Assembly (NCBI GenBank): GCA_050633245.1 | Contig: JBOEGD010000016.1 | Location: 26,746-90,745, forward strand | Source: Calditrichia bacterium | Lineage (GTDB): Bacteria > Calditrichota > Calditrichia > RBG-13-44-9 > J075 | Direction: 5' to 3' | DNA length: 64,000 nucleotides | In this document: positions 27,841-35,991 of the stretch, one piece after another | Layout: each line of letters starts with the position of its first letter | How positions within the stretch are numbered: position 1 is the stretch's first letter | Position numbers and translations under genes: made by a program | Notes under the pieces: generated by a model | Told to the model about the DNA's origin: nothing | Database searches by the model: none | Seen by the model: only the letters and a program-made list of their open reading frames with translations

Positions 27841-28209
27841 TTATCTGTTTCCGGTTTGCCAATCATATAGTTTACCATCACGGATGTCAGCACGAAAATA
27901 CGCTGCCACATGCCAGCGATGGTCGGGATTATGATACCAGTCCAAATGATCAGCGCTTACACCAGTTGGAGGGCCCAGCACCGCTTCAGCGTCTGCGCGG
28001 GACATTCCGTCATGCAGCGTTCCATTGTCGATCAAAGCCTTGCGTTCAAGAAAACTGCTCGGCGTGCCGTACGGCCAGCCTTCGGTCACTAGCACTTTTT
28101 CTGACGTGTCTGTTGCTGCTTTTGCAGACTTGGCCTGCTGTTTGTCAGTATGATTACAGCCTGTAATTATGATTGACAGGACAATCGATAGTACCATTGC
28201 TCTAATCAC
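27841..28209 (-). CDS. Small lipoprotein (SmpA/BamE-like 'GMS..DAEAVLGPP' motif)
   Basis: Lipobox IITGC. GTG 28209 lies just after the CHAT gene stop, with GAGGA upstream (ATG 28227 or 28197 are alternatives). Confidence 0.65.
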   Translation of the reverse strand: MIRAMVLSIVLSIIITGCNHTDKQQAKSAKAATDTSEKVLVTEGWPYGTPSSFLERKALIDNGTLHDGMSRADAEAVLGPPTGVSADHLDWYHNPDHRWHVAAYFRADIRDGKLYDWQTGNR

Positions 28210-28210
28210 T

Positions 28211-29305
28211 CTACAATTCCTCGTCATTTTTTTGCCCCAGAAACACAGGTGTATCCGCACCGTCAAGATTACGCATATCAAGCGCATTGCAACCGATTTC
28301 ATATGCTATTTTATAAGACTTTCCGGCACCCAGAGTATCATAAAACGCAACCGAAAATTCTATCGCTGCCTGCTGCTCAATTTTGTTGCTCATACCAATA
28401 ACGCAGGGAATGTGTGCGCTAATTGCCCTGGCCTGTGGTTCAGAATAACAAGCATTGAGTATGACGCACTCAATATTCTCGCTCAGTATACCCAACAAAT
28501 TTGCCAATGCAGCCTCACCTATCGGCTTTCCGAGTCCATTTTCATCCTCTAGTAGAACGGCGCTCTTATTCTCAGAACGCATACCGTGTCCGCTAAAATG
28601 CACGATATTCGGCTCCTCATCTAAAATAGCACGGCGTAAGTCTGTAGTGCGAACCGCCATTCGCGTTACCAGCTCAAACTCATCGCGACGATTTGCACGG
28701 CGAAGGCCCTCCTCTATCTCGCGGATTTCCTCGGCGATGCGCAGCGGATCCTGATCAATCGGCTGGGCAGCCAGCACCAGAATTTTACGCTTTTTCTTAT
28801 TTGCGGTATGATTCTTATTGGATCGTTTATCGATGGTCACTTGCGCAGCATCACCGGTAATATTGATTTGATCACCTTCTACCTGCGTTGTGCTTTGATC
28901 GACAGTATAGTCACCCGTTACCTTCCCTGGCGAGTTTTGACCATGCGTTGTAATGGTATCACCATAACTGACGTTCTGTACATTGCCATCGCCCTGCTGG
29001 TTGGGGCTATTGGTAAACTGGTTACCGCTTTGGGAATAGTGCTTTTTAGGTTGAATCTCTTTCATTAGCTGTTGCAGCACCGTATTGCTCTCTACATAGG
29101 CTTCAAAATACTTGGCGCTTTTGCGATCTGTCTCACTGGCCTTCATTGCCTCTTCGACAATAGCCGTTAGCTGCTCCTCGCTGATCAGAAACTTCTGTAG
29201 TCGTTCGCGCAGGAATTGTTTGGTTACACTTCCGGCGGCCTTTACAGCGTCATAACAAATTCCGCCTAGCACAGCGGAGGTGAGAAATGCGTTTACTCCG
29301 TCCAT
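28211..29305 (-). CDS. Putative effector: N-terminal helical domain, Q/N/G/T-rich linker and CHAT (caspase/HetF-like) protease
   Basis: 'KILVLAAQP...LRI.EE.REI', catalytic His in IVHFSGHG (aa 240), Cys in VILNACYS (aa 286), 'VIGM', 'FY..L..G'. Confidence 0.9.
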   Translation of the reverse strand: MDGVNAFLTSAVLGGICYDAVKAAGSVTKQFLRERLQKFLISEEQLTAIVEEAMKASETDRKSAKYFEAYVESNTVLQQLMKEIQPKKHYSQSGNQFTNSPNQQGDGNVQNVSYGDTITTHGQNSPGKVTGDYTVDQSTTQVEGDQINITGDAAQVTIDKRSNKNHTANKKKRKILVLAAQPIDQDPLRIAEEIREIEEGLRRANRRDEFELVTRMAVRTTDLRRAILDEEPNIVHFSGHGMRSENKSAVLLEDENGLGKPIGEAALANLLGILSENIECVILNACYSEPQARAISAHIPCVIGMSNKIEQQAAIEFSVAFYDTLGAGKSYKIAYEIGCNALDMRNLDGADTPVFLGQKNDEEL

Positions 29306-29331
29306 TGATATTCCTTTTTATTGGGATACAC

Positions 29332-31509
29332 CTACATTTTCTTGCTAATTCGATCTATAAAATCCTGAATTTTCTGATGATAAGGATGCTCTTCCGGCAA
29401 GGCGGCATGGTAAATTTCTGCTGCCCGAGAGCAGTAATTCAGGGCAGCTTCGAAATGCCTCATATCCTCTAAGATAGACCCCATTACCCAGCAGGACAGT
29501 GCTAAATCAGGATGATTCGCATGCAAAACCGGCTCACGAATTTTTAATGCCTTCTGTTGCGCATCCAACGCATCTTCTAAACGACCCAAAGAACGATAAA
29601 CCGTCGACAGATTGCTGTAAGATGTGGCTAAGTCAGGATGCCTCTCATCCAAAATAGCTCCAAAAATCTCATGCGCCTTTAGCTGCACTTCCAACCCATC
29701 TTCTAAACGATCCAAAGACTGATAAATAGACGAAAGGTTGTTGTAGGACTGTGCTAAAGAAGGATGAGTCGCATCTAAAACGGACTCACGGATGTTCACT
29801 GCCTTCTGTTGCGCTTCCAACCCATCTTCTAAACGACCCAAAGAAAGATAAACCGTCGACAGATTGTTGTAGGAGGTAGCTAAAGAAGGGTGAGTTGCAT
29901 CTAAAACGGACATTTTAATCTTTAATGCCTTCTGCTGTGACTCCAGCGCATCCTCAAAACGCCCCAAAGAATTATAAATCAACGACAGATTGTTGTAGGA
30001 CTGTGCTATGTCTGGATGATCCACACCCAAAACGGACTCACGACAATTCAAAGCCTTCTGCTGCGACTCTAGCGCATCCTCAAAACGCCCCAAAGAATTA
30101 TAAATCAACGACAGATTGTTGTAGGAGTTGGCCAGTGAAAGATCATCAGCCTCTAGCAGCTTTTCTTCAATGTCTATTCCGCGCAGCTGCACCTCAAGAG
30201 AGTCAGTTATTCGTCCAAAATGGTAATAAATCCAAGCCAGGCGTTCCATAAATCTCGCCAACGAGGTATTAGCGTCCGTCAAATAAGACACCATATCCTC
30301 TGCATAAGGAACAAGACTTGCCTTTGCAAGCGGATTGTCTCCAGGCTGGACGGTTAGTAAGTTTGTCAGCGATTCGATCAGCTTGCTACACCCCCCCGCA
30401 GTGGGTTTCAACCGCTCCCGTGCCACCGCAGCAATAATTGGGTGCAAAAAGACTTCAAAACCTTCCTGCTCAGACAGCCAGCCTTTGGCGACTAGTGAAG
30501 TAAGGGTATCGCTAATGTCATCCTGTAGCCAGTCGCTGAGCATTTGTGCTTCCATTGGCTCAGAAGGCAATACGCATAGGTTAGCAAGTACGTGGGCTTC
30601 TTCTGCAGATAGACCTTCCATGTTAAAAACGTTATTCAGGTGCTCAAAAAGCTTCTTCTCATCAATTTGATCATGCCAGAGGGTCTTAACCTTTTTCGGC
30701 AGAGCTTCATTTAGGTTAAAGCCGATCTCCTTCAGACGTTCCAGCAGTACGGTAATACTTATTTTGGCATGGTTGGCCGTCTTGGCAAGCAGCTCGACAG
30801 TCAACGTATGCTGCCCGGCAAGGTCGATTATCTCCTCCAGCGTTTCCACATCGCGCTTGCCCTTATAGAAGCGATAGAAAATCTCTCTGCAGCTTTCCAC
30901 ATCCAGAAATCCCAGTGGATAGCTCTCAAAACCTGCCAGCTGCAGCCGCGAGCTGGTTACCACCTTTAGCGGCAGGCCGCGCAGGTTGGCCAGATCAGCG
31001 TCTTCTGCATCAAGAATGTCATCGACAACCAGCAAAGACTTTACGGGCAGATTTGCAATCAAATGCATAATAAGCGCAAACTGTTCGTCGAGCGTTTGGC
31101 CCTGCTGAGGCGTAAATACCTCTGCGCTAATCGCCCGAACCAAAGACTCACGAAAGCTGCCAAAATAGTCTACCCACAGCAAATGATCAAAATTCGTCTT
31201 CTGTTCATGGAAAAAATGACGGCACAGCTCAGTCTTGCCTATGCCACCCAGGCCATTCACTACCACCACTGCTCCGGCATCATTCAGCGAGGTTTCCAGC
31301 TGGCGCAAATCTTCTTTCCGACCAACAAAACCCGCATTCTGCGGAGGTGTTCCGGTGAGGAATTTCGGTAATAGTTTATCACCGGAAATATACTGGTTTA
31401 TGATGTTTCCATAGTGAACGCGCTGAGTTCCACCATCGCCCTGCATATTGGGGCTTTGGATAAAGGCATTGTCAGCCTGCTCTTGCTCTTTTGGTTTCTT
31501 CTTTGGCAT
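29332..31509 (-). CDS. NB-ARC (STAND) ATPase + TPR, NLR-like receptor (here NLR-C)
   Basis: FVGRKEDL, Walker A GLGGIGKT, Walker B LLVVDD, 42-aa TPRs of the HPxxAxSYNNLS type. Confidence 0.92.
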   Translation of the reverse strand: MPKKKPKEQEQADNAFIQSPNMQGDGGTQRVHYGNIINQYISGDKLLPKFLTGTPPQNAGFVGRKEDLRQLETSLNDAGAVVVVNGLGGIGKTELCRHFFHEQKTNFDHLLWVDYFGSFRESLVRAISAEVFTPQQGQTLDEQFALIMHLIANLPVKSLLVVDDILDAEDADLANLRGLPLKVVTSSRLQLAGFESYPLGFLDVESCREIFYRFYKGKRDVETLEEIIDLAGQHTLTVELLAKTANHAKISITVLLERLKEIGFNLNEALPKKVKTLWHDQIDEKKLFEHLNNVFNMEGLSAEEAHVLANLCVLPSEPMEAQMLSDWLQDDISDTLTSLVAKGWLSEQEGFEVFLHPIIAAVARERLKPTAGGCSKLIESLTNLLTVQPGDNPLAKASLVPYAEDMVSYLTDANTSLARFMERLAWIYYHFGRITDSLEVQLRGIDIEEKLLEADDLSLANSYNNLSLIYNSLGRFEDALESQQKALNCRESVLGVDHPDIAQSYNNLSLIYNSLGRFEDALESQQKALKIKMSVLDATHPSLATSYNNLSTVYLSLGRLEDGLEAQQKAVNIRESVLDATHPSLAQSYNNLSSIYQSLDRLEDGLEVQLKAHEIFGAILDERHPDLATSYSNLSTVYRSLGRLEDALDAQQKALKIREPVLHANHPDLALSCWVMGSILEDMRHFEAALNYCSRAAEIYHAALPEEHPYHQKIQDFIDRISKKM
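29927..30126. repeat. Near-identical TPR-coding direct repeat with 126-bp period in NLR-C
   Basis: SYNNLSLIYNSLGRFEDALESQQKAL is encoded twice, 126 nt apart, with only a couple of synonymous differences. Confidence 0.85.
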
Positions 31510-31524
31510 CGTATAAACCTATTT

Positions 31525-33594
31525 TTATTCTTTCGTCTCGTCCAGTTTCTCCCTGTAGGATTGTAAATTATGAAATGCGATATCAAGATGAGGATGCCCA
31601 CCCGTAAAATTTTTTTGCCAAATCTGCAAGGCCCTTTCTTCAAACACCACTGCAAAATTATAGCTTTCCATGACCGCGTAAATACTCGCAAGGTTGTGAT
31701 AAGACTGCGCTAAGTCCGGGTGATCACCAGACAAAGTTGAGCCACGTATTTCAACCGATTTCTGCTGCATTTCCAAAGCCTCAGCGAAACAATATAACCC
31801 CTTATAAATAAGCGACAGGTTATTGTAGGACGTCGCTAGATTAGGATGATCCACACCCATAACCGAGATATAAATTTTATGTGCTTTCTTCTGCGTAGCC
31901 AACGCCTCGTCCAAACGTCCCATTGATTCAAAAATAAGTGACAAATTGTTGTAAGAGGTTGCTAAATTAGGGTGATCAGAGGGCAACGCCGACTCGAATA
32001 TGTCAATTGCTTTCTGCTGGGAAGCCAGTGCATTATCTAAACGACTCAAAGAACGATAAATTAGCGACAAATTATTGTAGGAGCTTCCTAAGTCAAGGTG
32101 ATCGGGTGGTAATAGTAACTCACTAATTTTAAGATCTTTCAGCTGCGACGCAAGCGCATCATCCAAACGCCCTAAAGAAAGATAAATTTGCGACAGGTCG
32201 TTATAGGAATCAGCCAATAAGGCATCGGTGCTATGAAGGAGCTGCTCTCGAATAGCAACGGAGCGTAGCTGCACCCTGAGGGATTCATTTAACTTTCCAA
32301 TTCCACGATATACCCAGCCCAAATAATACCCCAATGTCGCCAAGATTAGATGATCTTCGTTAAGATGGTTAAACAGTTCCTGACTGTAGGGAAGAAAAAT
32401 TGATTTACTAATTGGATTATCCCCCGGCTTCATTTCAAGTTTACTGATAAGCGAGTTGACCAAGATATTACAAGACATTGCCTTTGGCTTCAGCCGTTCC
32501 CGAGCCACGGCAGCAATAATTGGGTGCAAAAACACTTCAAAACCTTCCTGCTCAGACAGCCAGCCTTTGGCGACTAGTGAAGTGAGGGTATCGCTAATGT
32601 CATCCTGTAGCCAGTCGCTTAGTATTGCGGCTTCCATAGGCTCAGACGGCAATACACATAGATTAGCCAGCACGTAGGCTTCCTCTTCTGACAGGCTGTC
32701 CATTGCAAAAACGTTGTTTAAATGCTCAAAAAGCTTCTTTTCATCGACCTGCTCATGCCAGAGCATCTTCACGTTCTTTGGCAAGGCCTCATTCAGATTA
32801 AAGCCGATATCTATCAGGCGTTCAAACAGAACGGCAATGCTGATTTTTGCATGGTTGGCCGTCTTGGCAAGCAGCTCGACGGTCAGAGTATGCTGCCCGG
32901 TAAGATCGATCACGGCATCCAGCGTTTCCTCATCGCGCTTGCCGTTGTAAAAGCGATAGAAAACTTCCCGGCAGCTTTCAACGTCCAGAAATCCCAACGG
33001 ATAGCTTTCAAAACCTTCCAGCTGTAGACGTGAGCTGGTAACCACCTTTAGCGGCAGGCCGCGCAGTGCGGCCAGATCAGCGTCTTCTGCATCAAGAATG
33101 TCATCAACCAGCAGTAATGACTTTTCCGGCAAGTCGGCAAGAATAAGCATCACCTGCTCAAACTGTTCATTTAATGTTTGCCCCTCTCGCGGTCTGAATA
33201 CGTCTGTTCTAATAGCACGTACTAATGATTCCCGAAAGTTGCCGAGATAATCTACCCAGAGCAGGTGCTCAAACTTCGCCTGCTGTTCATGAAAAAAATG
33301 CCGGCACAGCTCGGTTTTGCCAATTCCACCCAGGCCATTCACCACCACCACTGCTCCGGCATCATTCAGCGAGGTTTCCAGCTGACGCAGATCTTCCTCC
33401 CGACCAAAGAAACCTGCATTCTGCGGTGGCGTGCCGGTGAGGAATTTGGGCAGCGGTTTTTCACCGGAAATATATTGATTTATGATATTTCCATAGTGAA
33501 CGTGCTGCGTATTGCCATCGCCCTGCTGATTCGGGCTTTGGCTAAAGGCATTAGCGCTCTGCTCTTGCTTTTTTGGCTTCTTTTTTGACGACAT
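31525..33594 (-). CDS. NB-ARC (STAND) ATPase + TPR, NLR-like receptor (here NLR-B)
   Basis: FFGREEDL, GLGGIGKT, LLLVDD, 42-aa TPRs; paralogue of both neighbours. Confidence 0.92.
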   Translation of the reverse strand: MSSKKKPKKQEQSANAFSQSPNQQGDGNTQHVHYGNIINQYISGEKPLPKFLTGTPPQNAGFFGREEDLRQLETSLNDAGAVVVVNGLGGIGKTELCRHFFHEQQAKFEHLLWVDYLGNFRESLVRAIRTDVFRPREGQTLNEQFEQVMLILADLPEKSLLLVDDILDAEDADLAALRGLPLKVVTSSRLQLEGFESYPLGFLDVESCREVFYRFYNGKRDEETLDAVIDLTGQHTLTVELLAKTANHAKISIAVLFERLIDIGFNLNEALPKNVKMLWHEQVDEKKLFEHLNNVFAMDSLSEEEAYVLANLCVLPSEPMEAAILSDWLQDDISDTLTSLVAKGWLSEQEGFEVFLHPIIAAVARERLKPKAMSCNILVNSLISKLEMKPGDNPISKSIFLPYSQELFNHLNEDHLILATLGYYLGWVYRGIGKLNESLRVQLRSVAIREQLLHSTDALLADSYNDLSQIYLSLGRLDDALASQLKDLKISELLLPPDHLDLGSSYNNLSLIYRSLSRLDNALASQQKAIDIFESALPSDHPNLATSYNNLSLIFESMGRLDEALATQKKAHKIYISVMGVDHPNLATSYNNLSLIYKGLYCFAEALEMQQKSVEIRGSTLSGDHPDLAQSYHNLASIYAVMESYNFAVVFEERALQIWQKNFTGGHPHLDIAFHNLQSYREKLDETKE

Positions 33595-33615
33595 AGTATG
33601 GACCTAGTTTTGTTG

Positions 33616-35559
33616 CTATTTCGTCTCATCCAGTTTCTCTTGATAGGATTGCAAAGCACTGGATGAACTGTCAACGTGAGGGTGCCCATCAGGAAAGTTC
33701 ACCTCAAGTATTTGCAGGGCCTTCGCTTCGAGTTCTAGTGCCTTCTGGTAATTTTTCTGCACTGCATAAATGCCGGCTAGGTTGTGATAGGAAATCGCTA
33801 AATGAGGATGAGCCGTATCCAAAACAATTTCAGCAATTTTGTGCGCTTTCTCTTGCGTAGCCGACGCCTCGTCCAAACGCCCCAAAGAACGATAAATCAG
33901 TGACAGATTGTTGTAGGACCCCGCTACATGGGGATGAGTCGAATCCAAAGCCGACTTAAGTATTTTGTGCGCTTTCTCTTGCGCAGCCAATGCCTCATCC
34001 AAACGACTCAAAGAACGATAAATCAGTGACAGATTGTTGTAGGACGTCGCTAATAAAGGATGATTTGCTTCCAACACTGACTCGCTGATTTCAATATCCT
34101 TCTGCTGCGCAGCCAATGCCTCATCCAAACGCCCCAAAGACTGAAAGGTTAGTGCCAAATTGGAATAGGATGAAGCCAGAGAATTATCATTATTTTCTAA
34201 CAGCCGCTCTTCGATCTCAAGCCCACGGTGTTGAACTTTTAGAGAGTCTTCTAACCTTCCAAGATCGCGGTAAACCCAAGCCAGGTGAAACATCAATTTT
34301 GCCACCAGCGTACTATCTTCATTCAATTGATCGACCAGTTTTTGCGCAAAGGGCACATAGCCGGCACGACGAAGTGGATTATCTTCCGGCTCAACAGTCA
34401 GCTTTATTGTAAGCGATTCGATCAGCTTCCTACAGGTGTCGGGAGTGGGCTCTAACAGTTCGCGAGCCACTGCGGCAATAATCGGGTGCAAAAACACTTC
34501 AAAACCTTCCTGCTCAGACAGCCAGCCTTTAGCTGTGAGGGCAGTCAGCGTATCGCTGAGATCCTTTTTCAGCCAGTCGCTTAAGGTCTGGGCTTCCAAT
34601 GGTTCAGACGGCAGCACACAGAAATTAGACAAAACCTCGACCTCGTCGTCAGTAAGGTCCTCCATTGCAAAGACGTTTCTTAAGTGCTCAAAGAGCTTCT
34701 TTTCATCAATCTCGTCATGCCAGAGCGTCTTTACGTTCTTCGGTAGAGCCTCATTCAGGTTAAAGCCGATCTCCTTCAAGCGTTCAACCAGATCCGCAAT
34801 GCTGATTTTGGCATGATTGGCTGTCTTGGCCAAAAGCTCGACGGTAAGCGTATGCTGCCCGGCAAGGTCGATAATCTCCTCCAGCGTTTGCTCATCGCGC
34901 CTGCCCTTGTAAAAGCGATAGAAAATCTCTTTGCAGCTTTCCATATCCAGAAATCCCAGCGGATAGCTTTCAAAGCCTTCCAGCTGTAAGCGCGAGCTGC
35001 TAACCACCTTTAGCGGCAGGCTGCGCAAGGCCGCTAAATCGGGATCATTAACATCATCAATATCATCAACAACCAGCAGGGTCTTCCTCGGCAAATTGGT
35101 AGCCAGCCCCATAACCAGCGCAAACTGCTCATCCAGAGTCTGCCCTTCGGTTGGCATAAATACTTCGGATCGCATTACCCGCACCAAAGACTCGCGGAAG
35201 CTACCGAGATAATCCACCCACAGCAGGTGCGTAAACTGCTCTTTCTGCCGGTGAAAAAACTGCCGGCACAGCTCGGTTTTGCCAATCCCGCCCAGACCGT
35301 TCACCACAACCACCGCCCCGGCACTGTTCAGCGTATTTTCCAACTGCGCGAGGTCTTCCTCCCGGCCAAAAAAGCCGGCATTTTGCGGTGGCGTACCGGT
35401 AAGAAATTTGGGCAGCGGCTTTTGCTGCGGAAGATTGTTAATCGTGCGCTTATCAATATTTACGGATGCCTGTTCACCGCTAATATTTAGCTGGTCATTG
35501 GCAATTTTAGTTTTTGAGTGGCTGACAGAAGTCTGTTGAGGCTTTTTCTTTTTTGCCAA
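33616..35559 (-). CDS. NB-ARC (STAND) ATPase + TPR, NLR-like receptor (here NLR-A)
   Basis: TTG start with GGGAG RBS; FFGREEDL, GLGGIGKT, LLVVDD, 42-aa TPRs. Confidence 0.92.
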   Translation of the reverse strand: MAKKKKPQQTSVSHSKTKIANDQLNISGEQASVNIDKRTINNLPQQKPLPKFLTGTPPQNAGFFGREEDLAQLENTLNSAGAVVVVNGLGGIGKTELCRQFFHRQKEQFTHLLWVDYLGSFRESLVRVMRSEVFMPTEGQTLDEQFALVMGLATNLPRKTLLVVDDIDDVNDPDLAALRSLPLKVVSSSRLQLEGFESYPLGFLDMESCKEIFYRFYKGRRDEQTLEEIIDLAGQHTLTVELLAKTANHAKISIADLVERLKEIGFNLNEALPKNVKTLWHDEIDEKKLFEHLRNVFAMEDLTDDEVEVLSNFCVLPSEPLEAQTLSDWLKKDLSDTLTALTAKGWLSEQEGFEVFLHPIIAAVARELLEPTPDTCRKLIESLTIKLTVEPEDNPLRRAGYVPFAQKLVDQLNEDSTLVAKLMFHLAWVYRDLGRLEDSLKVQHRGLEIEERLLENNDNSLASSYSNLALTFQSLGRLDEALAAQQKDIEISESVLEANHPLLATSYNNLSLIYRSLSRLDEALAAQEKAHKILKSALDSTHPHVAGSYNNLSLIYRSLGRLDEASATQEKAHKIAEIVLDTAHPHLAISYHNLAGIYAVQKNYQKALELEAKALQILEVNFPDGHPHVDSSSSALQSYQEKLDETK

Positions 35560-35926: not shown

Positions 35927-35960
35927 AAAAAAGGAGGCTCCGCAAATTGCAGAGCCTCCT
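35927..35960 (-). terminator. Intrinsic terminator of the fad operon
   Basis: AGGAGGCTC..GCAA/TTGC..GAGCCTCCT stem with an A-tract on the left (U-tail on the minus strand). Confidence 0.8.
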
Positions 35961-35991
35961 CGAGTAAAGATCTAATCATGATTTTAGAAGA

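Follow-up and report, generated by a model that had tools for sequence, protein, structure and literature searches.

Amyloid signalling from NLRs to cell-death effectors is established in fungi and, since the description of the Bab/Agp system, also in bacteria, so far with one motif per pathway or with one receptor addressing several effectors. A close bacterial precedent is that of Dyrka et al. 2020 (bioRxiv 10.1101/2020.01.06.895854), in which a Bell effector carries a motif after its domain, the NLR carries the motif at its N-terminus, and the genes are collinear and only a few bases apart. In the same account, CHAT is an alternative effector domain, and where a Bell protein has several motifs, these are pseudo-repeats of a single one. 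Here we analyse a four-gene cluster encoding three NLR paralogs (NLR-A, NLR-B, and NLR-C) and one effector, found in a stretch of 64,000 nucleotides of a Calditrichia bacterium genome (GenBank assembly GCA_050633245.1, contig JBOEGD010000016.1, positions 26,746 to 90,745), hereafter the window. The linker of the effector carries three short motifs, named A, M, and B, and motif B recurs at the N-terminus of NLR-A. With a probability of roughly 0.55, we take motif B to be a BASS-type receptor-to-effector signalling motif through which NLR-A is privately linked to the effector.

How does this locus compare with the described systems? Like the BASS pairs of Dyrka et al., it has a short motif both after a Bell-type domain and at the N-terminus of an NB-ARC/TPR protein, near-abutting collinear genes, motifs whose composition appears to favour N, Q, G, V, and I, and CHAT as an effector domain. 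Unlike them, as far as that account describes them, the effector has three motif families in tandem, with A and B divided among three receptors; its motifs are internal, between the Bell-type and CHAT domains, and not C-terminal; and motif B matches nothing else searched. The Bab/Agp system (BASS11), in which Bab executes abortive infection in E. coli via amyloid templating (bioRxiv 10.1101/2024.11.07.622273), resembles the window effector in that the globular domain of Bab is homologous (PDB 9h9v, E 2.3e-6) and is followed by a common motif. By contrast, Bab is a protein of 109 amino acids with one motif and no protease, and it is served by one receptor.

In Podospora, an N-terminal motif of the NLR NWD2 templates the prion-forming region of the effector HET-s, and different motif families, belonging to three amyloid signalosomes, are present in one genome without cross-seeding (PMC7885112; PMC4518210). 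These signalosomes are a precedent for orthogonal channels at the window locus. In the published descriptions, however, each Podospora pathway has its own effector and HET-s carries two pseudo-repeats of one motif, whereas the window locus places dissimilar motifs on one effector. The PNT1/HELLP/SBP cluster of Chaetomium globosum (PMC7885112) likewise has more than two genes and branched amyloid signalling, but its branching is divergent, from one NLR with one motif to two effectors, while that of the window locus is convergent, from three NLRs with at least two motifs to one effector. Two motif classes are also mentioned in combination on fungal NLR N-termini (PMC9815663). No description of a single effector with unrelated motifs addressed by different receptors was found in the literature, with subscription papers and supplements outside the scope of the search. 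In its predicted domains, the gene set is a textbook BASS receptor/effector layout; what is new here, as judged from sequence, is the concatenation of different motif families between the two killing domains of that layout.

Motif B in NLR-A and the Effector

Four collinear open reading frames (ORFs) occupy positions 28211-35559, all on the minus strand, in the 5' to 3' order NLR-A, NLR-B, NLR-C, effector. The genes and the two copies of motif B are as follows.

33616-35559, minus strand: NLR-A, a receptor of 647 amino acids with NB-ARC/AAA_16 and TPR_10/TPR_12 domains and a TTG start (ORF and Pfam)
31525-33594, minus strand: NLR-B, a paralog of 689 amino acids, 263/354 identical to NLR-A in the NOD region
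29332-31509, minus strand: NLR-C, a paralog of 725 amino acids, 280/354 identical to NLR-A in the NOD region
28211-29305, minus strand: effector gene, 364 amino acids, with a Bab/Bell-type domain, a motif-bearing linker, and a CHAT protease domain
28820-28903, minus strand: motif B of the effector, residues 135-162 (private core 145-161), reading VDQSTTQVEGDQINITGDAAQVTIDKRS
35443-35526, minus strand: motif B of NLR-A, residues 12-39, reading VSHSKTKIANDQLNISGEQASVNIDKRT

The first-pass annotation had proposed, from the letters and translated reading frames alone, that these two segments form a pair, and it had placed them correctly: both copies lie on the minus strand, and the plus-strand translation is senseless. 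Residues 135-162 of the effector align without gaps to residues 12-39 of NLR-A, with 14/28 identical as it had reported, and the core DQ[IL]NI[TS]G[DE]xAxVxIDKR is identical at 11 of its 17 positions. A local alignment of the effector linker (residues 86-175) with residues 1-50 of NLR-A scores 79; none of 2000 shuffles reaches this value (mean 25.5, standard deviation 4.5, maximum 50). The 6.35-Mb genome has 47,755 stop-to-stop frames of at least 50 amino acids. When residues 1-44 of NLR-A were compared with these frames, the top non-self match was the effector (79) and the runner-up scored 55. A hidden Markov model (HMM) of motif B matches only NLR-A and the effector (E about 6e-21), the next match being at E 0.47.

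The other two receptors are paired with the effector through a different segment, motif A, which was located by HMM and alignment.

28940-29029, minus strand: motif A of the effector, residues 93-122
33469-33558, minus strand: motif A of NLR-B, residues 13-42, 17/30 identical to residues 93-122 of the effector
31387-31476, minus strand: motif A of NLR-C, residues 12-41, 14/30 identical to residues 93-122 of the effector

The motif A HMM matches NLR-B, NLR-C, and the effector only (next match at E 1.7). Across the genome, the HMM scans thus bear out the claim that NLR-A lacks motif A and that NLR-B and NLR-C lack motif B. Any likeness between the N-terminus of NLR-A and that of NLR-B or NLR-C is confined to the lysine-rich first 10 or so residues; over the first 45 residues, NLR-A is identical to NLR-B at only 9/45 positions and to NLR-C at 7/44, as unrelated segments are. 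With an alignment score of 79 against 25.5±4.5 for shuffles, and with motifs that are mutually exclusive across the NLRs, the pairing through motif B is specific and non-random.

At the nucleotide level, the two copies of motif B are identical at 46/84 positions. The matches fall on codon positions 1 and 2 (19/28 each) far more than on position 3 (8/28), and one serine common to both copies is encoded by AGC in one and by TCA in the other. The low third-position match, with positions 1 and 2 kept, indicates that the likeness is old and has been held at the amino-acid level, rather than being a recent copy; such a codon pattern is the outcome expected of long-term amino-acid constraint.

The conserved residues follow the pattern phi-N-phi-x-G-x-x-A-x-phi-x-phi. 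Of the 28 residues, 13 are Q, N, G, V, or I in the effector copy and 11 in the NLR-A copy, while 1 and 4, respectively, are K, P, or L. The AlphaFold2 (AF2) model of the effector places strands at residues 139-143, 146-151, and 154-159, with a strand-turn-strand at residues 146-159 around G151 (predicted local distance difference test score, pLDDT, about 59). A complex prediction with three copies of NLR-A residues 1-48 and effector residues 86-172 gave 0.01 (mark 0.34); this is no verdict and counts neither for nor against binding. Structure comparison of NLR-A residues 1-48 returned no usable feature match, only unrelated folds below a TM score of 0.52.

Does NLR-A begin upstream of motif B? 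An in-frame TAA stands eight codons upstream of the TTG at 35559, and there is no other ATG, GTG, or TTG ahead of codon 73. Codon 73 is already inside the NB-ARC region, and a start there would remove the conserved segment that precedes the P-loop. The sequence GGGAG lies 9 nucleotides upstream of the TTG, and the product begins M-AKKKKP, to be compared with MSSKKKP in NLR-B and MPKKKP in NLR-C. The TTG is the sole usable start codon, so motif B falls within the NLR-A protein, and the predicted start is secure.

Domains of the Effector and Its Receptors

Two domains flank the linker of the effector.

29042-29287, minus strand: Bab/Bell-type helical domain (Pfam HetE-N PF20701), residues 7-88
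28235-28792, minus strand: CHAT caspase-like protease domain, residues 172-357, with HFSGHG at residues 236-241 and LNACYS at residues 283-288

The N-terminal domain matches PF20701 with 55.9 bits (cut-off 25, E 5.6e-15), and in a phmmer search residues 7-88 match PDB entry 9h9v, "Babybass", over chain residues 4-84 of 85 (E 2.3e-6). The effector starts MDGVNAFLTSAVLGG and looks as expected of a Bell/Bab protein: its N-terminal hydrophobic helix has an acidic residue at position 2-3, and the domain is a small bundle of helices. The AF2 model (mean pLDDT 74) has four helices at residues 2-84, disorder at residues 84-138, and a confident CHAT fold at residues 172-357, where pLDDT is mostly above 90. 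The CHAT domain matches Pfam PF12770 with 46.5 bits (cut-off 24, E 4.2e-12); HFSGHG and LNACYS, a candidate His/Cys dyad, are kept in the consensus of the CHAT family, to which the domain belongs by the features tested.

In a Foldseek search, the best match of the CHAT domain is PDB 8tl0, an entry titled as an activated SAVED-CHAT filament (E 1.8e-13, root-mean-square deviation 2.5 Å, 23% identity), which fits activation by polymerisation. Other matches are MALT1 and caspases. SAVED-CHAT is activated via its cyclic-nucleotide-binding SAVED domain; unlike the window effector as we read it, it is not known to be activated by an amyloid-type motif.

An exhaustive HMMER search with residues 1-172 of the effector returned 46 homologues, mostly of 106-168 amino acids, which is the typical size of a Bell domain plus a motif. 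One of them, P0158 from a Clostridia metagenome-assembled genome (MAG), is an all-in-one Bell-NB-ARC-TPR protein. No CHAT domain was found among the 46 (Pfam was applied to the seven of at least 238 amino acids, the spurious P0142 aside, the rest being too short), and no PF20701 domain was found among the other 119 matches listed for the search driven by the CHAT domain.

The three receptors match Pfam NB-ARC with 24.4 (NLR-A), 30.9, and 31.3 bits (cut-off 23.5), and TPR_10 and TPR_12 at E values from 1e-37 to 1e-69 (2.4e-40 for TPR_10 in NLR-A). They bear the P-loop GLGGIGKT and, with NB-ARC followed by TPR, qualify as bacterial NLR-like STAND proteins. NLR-A, NLR-B, and NLR-C are the only members of their NOD family in the genome. 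In the NOD region they are identical to one another at 263-288 of 354 positions; the TPR part is less alike. At identical NOD residues, fourfold third positions match at only 32/80 to 47/85 between paralogs, and this poor match indicates that the triplication is old.

Three Motif Families in One Linker

The linker carries a third segment between motifs A and B.

28889-28966, minus strand: motif M of the effector, residues 114-139, of the type GD.I.T.G..SPGKV.GDY, reading GDTITTHGQNSPGKVTGDYTVDQSTT

An HMM of motif M built from eight relatives, with this effector left out, matches the effector at E 4e-9. Motif M has no partner in this genome: the next HMM match is at E 2.1, and a regular expression finds the effector alone. 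The unpartnered motif may be an orphan socket left by an M-type ancestor like the effector of a genome from the same family (G003, described below).

Motif M overlaps both the end of motif A and the start of motif B, and its presence modifies the earlier description in two respects. Motif B had been called a second and different motif; it is indeed unlike A, but the linker holds three families and not two. It had also been drawn as 28 residues long. The pairing over that length stands, but the first 8 or so residues are the tail of M, which leaves a private core of about 17-20 residues. Motif B was also considered as a diverged second half of M and this was rejected, as no significant alignment to M-type N-termini was obtained.

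Motifs A and B are mutually dissimilar, barring the residues common to both test windows. The arrangement does not follow the pseudo-repeats of HET-s, since NLR-A matches B only and NLR-B and NLR-C match A only. A-like motifs end 6 of the 46 Bell homologues, while motif M follows Bell-type domains in P0127 and in a protein of genome G005 and precedes the NLRs of genomes G010 and G013. In the window effector, by contrast with the standard BASS case, the motif region (residues 93-162) follows the Bab/Bell-type domain (residues 7-88) and is itself followed by CHAT. The predicted linker thus strings together at least three motif families, A, M, and B.

Proposed Mechanism

How would the receptors act on the effector? 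We infer all of the activation steps from the parts and pairings described above. Each NB-ARC/TPR paralog would sense its own trigger via its diverged TPR array and then oligomerise, whereupon the clustered N-terminal motifs would fold into a beta-arch or amyloid-like nucleus. The nucleus would template the cognate segment of the effector linker, B in the case of NLR-A and A in the case of NLR-B and NLR-C. Polymerisation of the linker would free the N-terminal helix of the Bab/Bell-type domain for membrane attack and would set the CHAT protease domains side by side, as in filament-activated SAVED-CHAT; the outcome would be an abortive-infection type of cell death. With A, M, and B joined in its linker, the effector would serve as a multi-socket hub whose M socket is empty in this genome. 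The first-pass proposal of two separate channels converging on one protein rests on the dissimilarity of the motif sequences.

A more general version of this idea, which we put forward tentatively and with some doubt, is that the effector acts in nature as a hub for multiple inputs. It would be a logical OR gate whose orthogonal prion-like sockets (A, M, and B) have a pore-forming Bab/Bell domain on one side and a CHAT protease on the other. Its sockets would each serve their own set of NLRs without cross-talk, sockets would be gained and lost together with sensors, and any socket would fire both killing activities. If this is true, motifs of 20-30 residues are stackable like connectors on one effector, and a cell could channel diversified sensors into one executioner while the receptor nuclei are kept orthogonal. 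With four genes and three motif families, the locus is a compact natural test bed for the specificity of amyloid templating. It is equally suited to asking whether adjacent prion-like motifs fold independently, and to studying how a membrane-attack domain and a caspase-like protease that share one chain are activated by polymerisation.

Points Against a Signalling Role and Alternative Explanations

Several observations weigh against motif B as a signalling motif. Motif B is absent from all 46 Bell homologues and from all 119 CHAT homologues (among the matches listed), as well as from the 12,438 frames of 83 related NLR loci. The N-termini of 82 related NLRs show no significant likeness to it (best score 32, against a null maximum of 35.3±4.6). 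A degenerate DNA pattern of its core has no match in metagenome contigs; in genome contigs, a search with the motif B alignment gave 107 pattern matches, of which the only one confirmed by tblastn (L016, in an Ahniellaceae MAG) was rejected as an antisense frame in a high-GC gene. Word-based searches of 5.8 billion protein clusters, with residues 1-48 of NLR-A (6 candidates) and residues 131-172 of the effector (2 candidates), returned only the query sequences themselves. As motif B was seen in no other sequence searched, its function has no backing from conservation or covariation, and the evidence base is a single locus in a single genome. Within the locus, the overlap of the first 8 or so residues with motif M counts on the same side, as do the K/P/L content of the NLR-A copy (4/28), which exceeds the depletion described for BASS, and the AF2 confidence, with a modest pLDDT of about 59 over B and values under 50 over A and M.

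The sole remotely similar sequence is the tail of P0118, a CHAT homologue of 240 amino acids, which ends …YDIQITGDVEGLVLGDDAQVTMNFGG and is faintly B-like; its HMM match (E 0.59) is not significant.

What else could the likeness between NLR-A and the effector mean? It may be that A, M, and B stack as consecutive layers in one multi-rung beta-solenoid or amyloid core, comparable to r1 and r2 of HET-s. Each NLR would then template its own layer, while a single nucleus of any kind would suffice to fold the entire region. The motifs adjoin and overlap one another (residues 93-122, 114-139, and 135-162), the region is punctuated by G-D turns, and an 11-residue G/P-containing segment between A and B, GQNSPGKVTGD, recalls the Gly/Pro-rich loops of HET-s and of the double and triple BASS motifs, as Dyrka et al. 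2020 (bioRxiv 10.1101/2020.01.06.895854) describe them. Known multi-rung cores, however, repeat one motif, whereas A and B are dissimilar, and A-like and M motifs stand alone elsewhere as complete C- or N-terminal modules; this autonomy in other proteins argues for modularity. We regard the composite core as unlikely; it differs from a signalling role of motif B as a separate socket solely in whether the sockets fold independently. A further possibility is that the likeness is a relic of old recombination or domain shuffling that has no signalling role now, with NLR-A either decoupled or wired differently. The orphan status of motif B in every database searched would fit such a history, as would the frequent exchange of N-terminal modules in this NLR family. 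Yet the third codon position matches at a near-random 8/28, against 19/28 at each of the first two, the common serine is encoded as AGC and TCA, and neutral decay over such a time should have wiped out a likeness of 28 residues; moreover, the NLR-A gene is intact and stands first in a tight operon. We therefore consider a relic very improbable.

No more credible, in our estimate, is the idea that motif B is not an amyloid element at all, and that ...V.IDKR[ST] is a site that the CHAT protease or a third factor recognises or cleaves, or a docking site for beta-strand addition. In the protease version, cleavage would separate the Bell half of the effector from its CHAT half, and NLR-A would lose its end at the corresponding site. 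Metacaspase-type proteases, which have a caspase fold, cleave behind basic residues; both copies of motif B close with IDKR and then S or T, and in the effector this stretch just precedes a basic linker and the CHAT domain. Against this, the conserved stretch of about 17-28 residues, with its alternating strand-turn-strand, extends far beyond the needs of a cleavage site, and the parallel pair of motif A copies has no such basic site.

Genomic Context of the Cluster

Successive genes of the cluster are separated by 21, 15, and 26 nucleotides, and NLR-A lies 4.3 kb from the effector within the one cluster. On the 5' side, the neighbours form a fatty-acid oxidation block (TetR, a fadB-like gene, thiolase, and fadE) that is closed by a strong terminator-like hairpin.

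35931-35961, minus strand: terminator-like hairpin after the upstream fadE, with a 14-bp stem containing 8 G-C pairs, followed by a T-run

With this hairpin after fadE, the cluster would be transcribed separately from the upstream block, and the genes for NLR-A, NLR-B, NLR-C, and the effector look like one compact operon of their own. On the 3' side lie a small lipoprotein-like ORF and a strictosidine-synthase-like gene. The small ORF (27841-28197, minus strand) begins about 13 nucleotides past the effector stop. Its product matches nothing in Pfam but shows a signal of lipoprotein type (…SIIITGC…), and the operon could thus have a fifth member.

The comparison collection included 86 genomes of the host phylum, among which this genome is the sole member of its genus. 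Of the 15 genomes of the family, 13 have fadE orthologues, but wherever NLR homologues occur, in four of the genomes, they do not lie next to fadE. Synteny of the strictosidine-synthase-like neighbour is not kept in the family genomes compared. No integrase or transposase was found among the 16 flanking ORFs scanned. The cluster matches no defence system catalogued in PADLOC, where there were only matches to the CHAT part (E 2.3e-12 and 2.2e-6), with weak similarity to the SAVED_CHAT model, and faint resemblance to Avs4 and PDC-S27 at the level of the P-loop (E above 0.003).

Related Loci and N-Terminal Modules

The nearest relative of the window's system is locus L025 (G003:C61:462000-475525), which lies in another genome of the family and encodes an NLR, an effector (P0010) with a transmembrane (TM) segment, motif M, and CHAT, and a second NLR preceded by motif M. 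The two loci share the same NLR family, with 41-42% identity in the NOD region, and P0010 is 44% identical to the window effector over 66% of the query, with M directly upstream of CHAT in both. In contrast to the window locus, L025 has a single motif, M, common to all partners, with neither motif A nor motif B, and its effector has a hydrophobic N-terminal helix in place of the Bell-type domain.

Among the 83 related NLR loci, pairs with a short motif are found in L025, L068, L079, L087, L091, L093, and L097, and each of these loci is single-motif; in all of them but L097, an NLR and an effector were seen to carry the same motif. In the six that come from metagenome contigs (L093, L097, L079, L068, L087, and L091), the N-terminal motifs are of the type QKN[IV][IV].G.I..V....IGD and are common to small neighbours or to a second NLR. 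The N-termini of 94 NLR segments include TIR-like, CHAT, caspase-like, TM, and short-motif types. To judge from this variety, N-terminal modules are evidently swapped freely in this NLR family.

In three loci, the N-terminal module of the NLR lies in frame 0 relative to a NOD segment in another frame: L025:8306-8700 (G003), L026:8592-8894, minus strand (G013), and L027:8572-8799, minus strand (G010). The module consists of a hydrophobic helix and motif M and spans about 85-100 amino acids, with a stop 1-2 codons past an A-run. The context of the run is CCA AAA AAG TCT TAA in G003 and CCA AAA AAA GCC TGA in G010 and G013, which represent two genera. The NOD segment KK[SV]LTSLPP...GRE resumes in the -1 frame without a start of its own before the P-loop. 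The A-run looks like a site of dnaX-type programmed -1 frameshifting (A_AAA_AAG / A_AAA_AAA) or of transcriptional slippage. If so, one message would give two products, the small motif protein on its own and the motif fused to the NLR.

Elsewhere in the genome of the window (G000, contig C2:76105-81050), a CHAT protein has an N-terminal part of about 110 amino acids that matches the adjacent ORF (score 169) and a C-terminal part that matches the next ORF (score 241). This likeness may represent domain-based adaptor pairing, and not pairing through a short motif.

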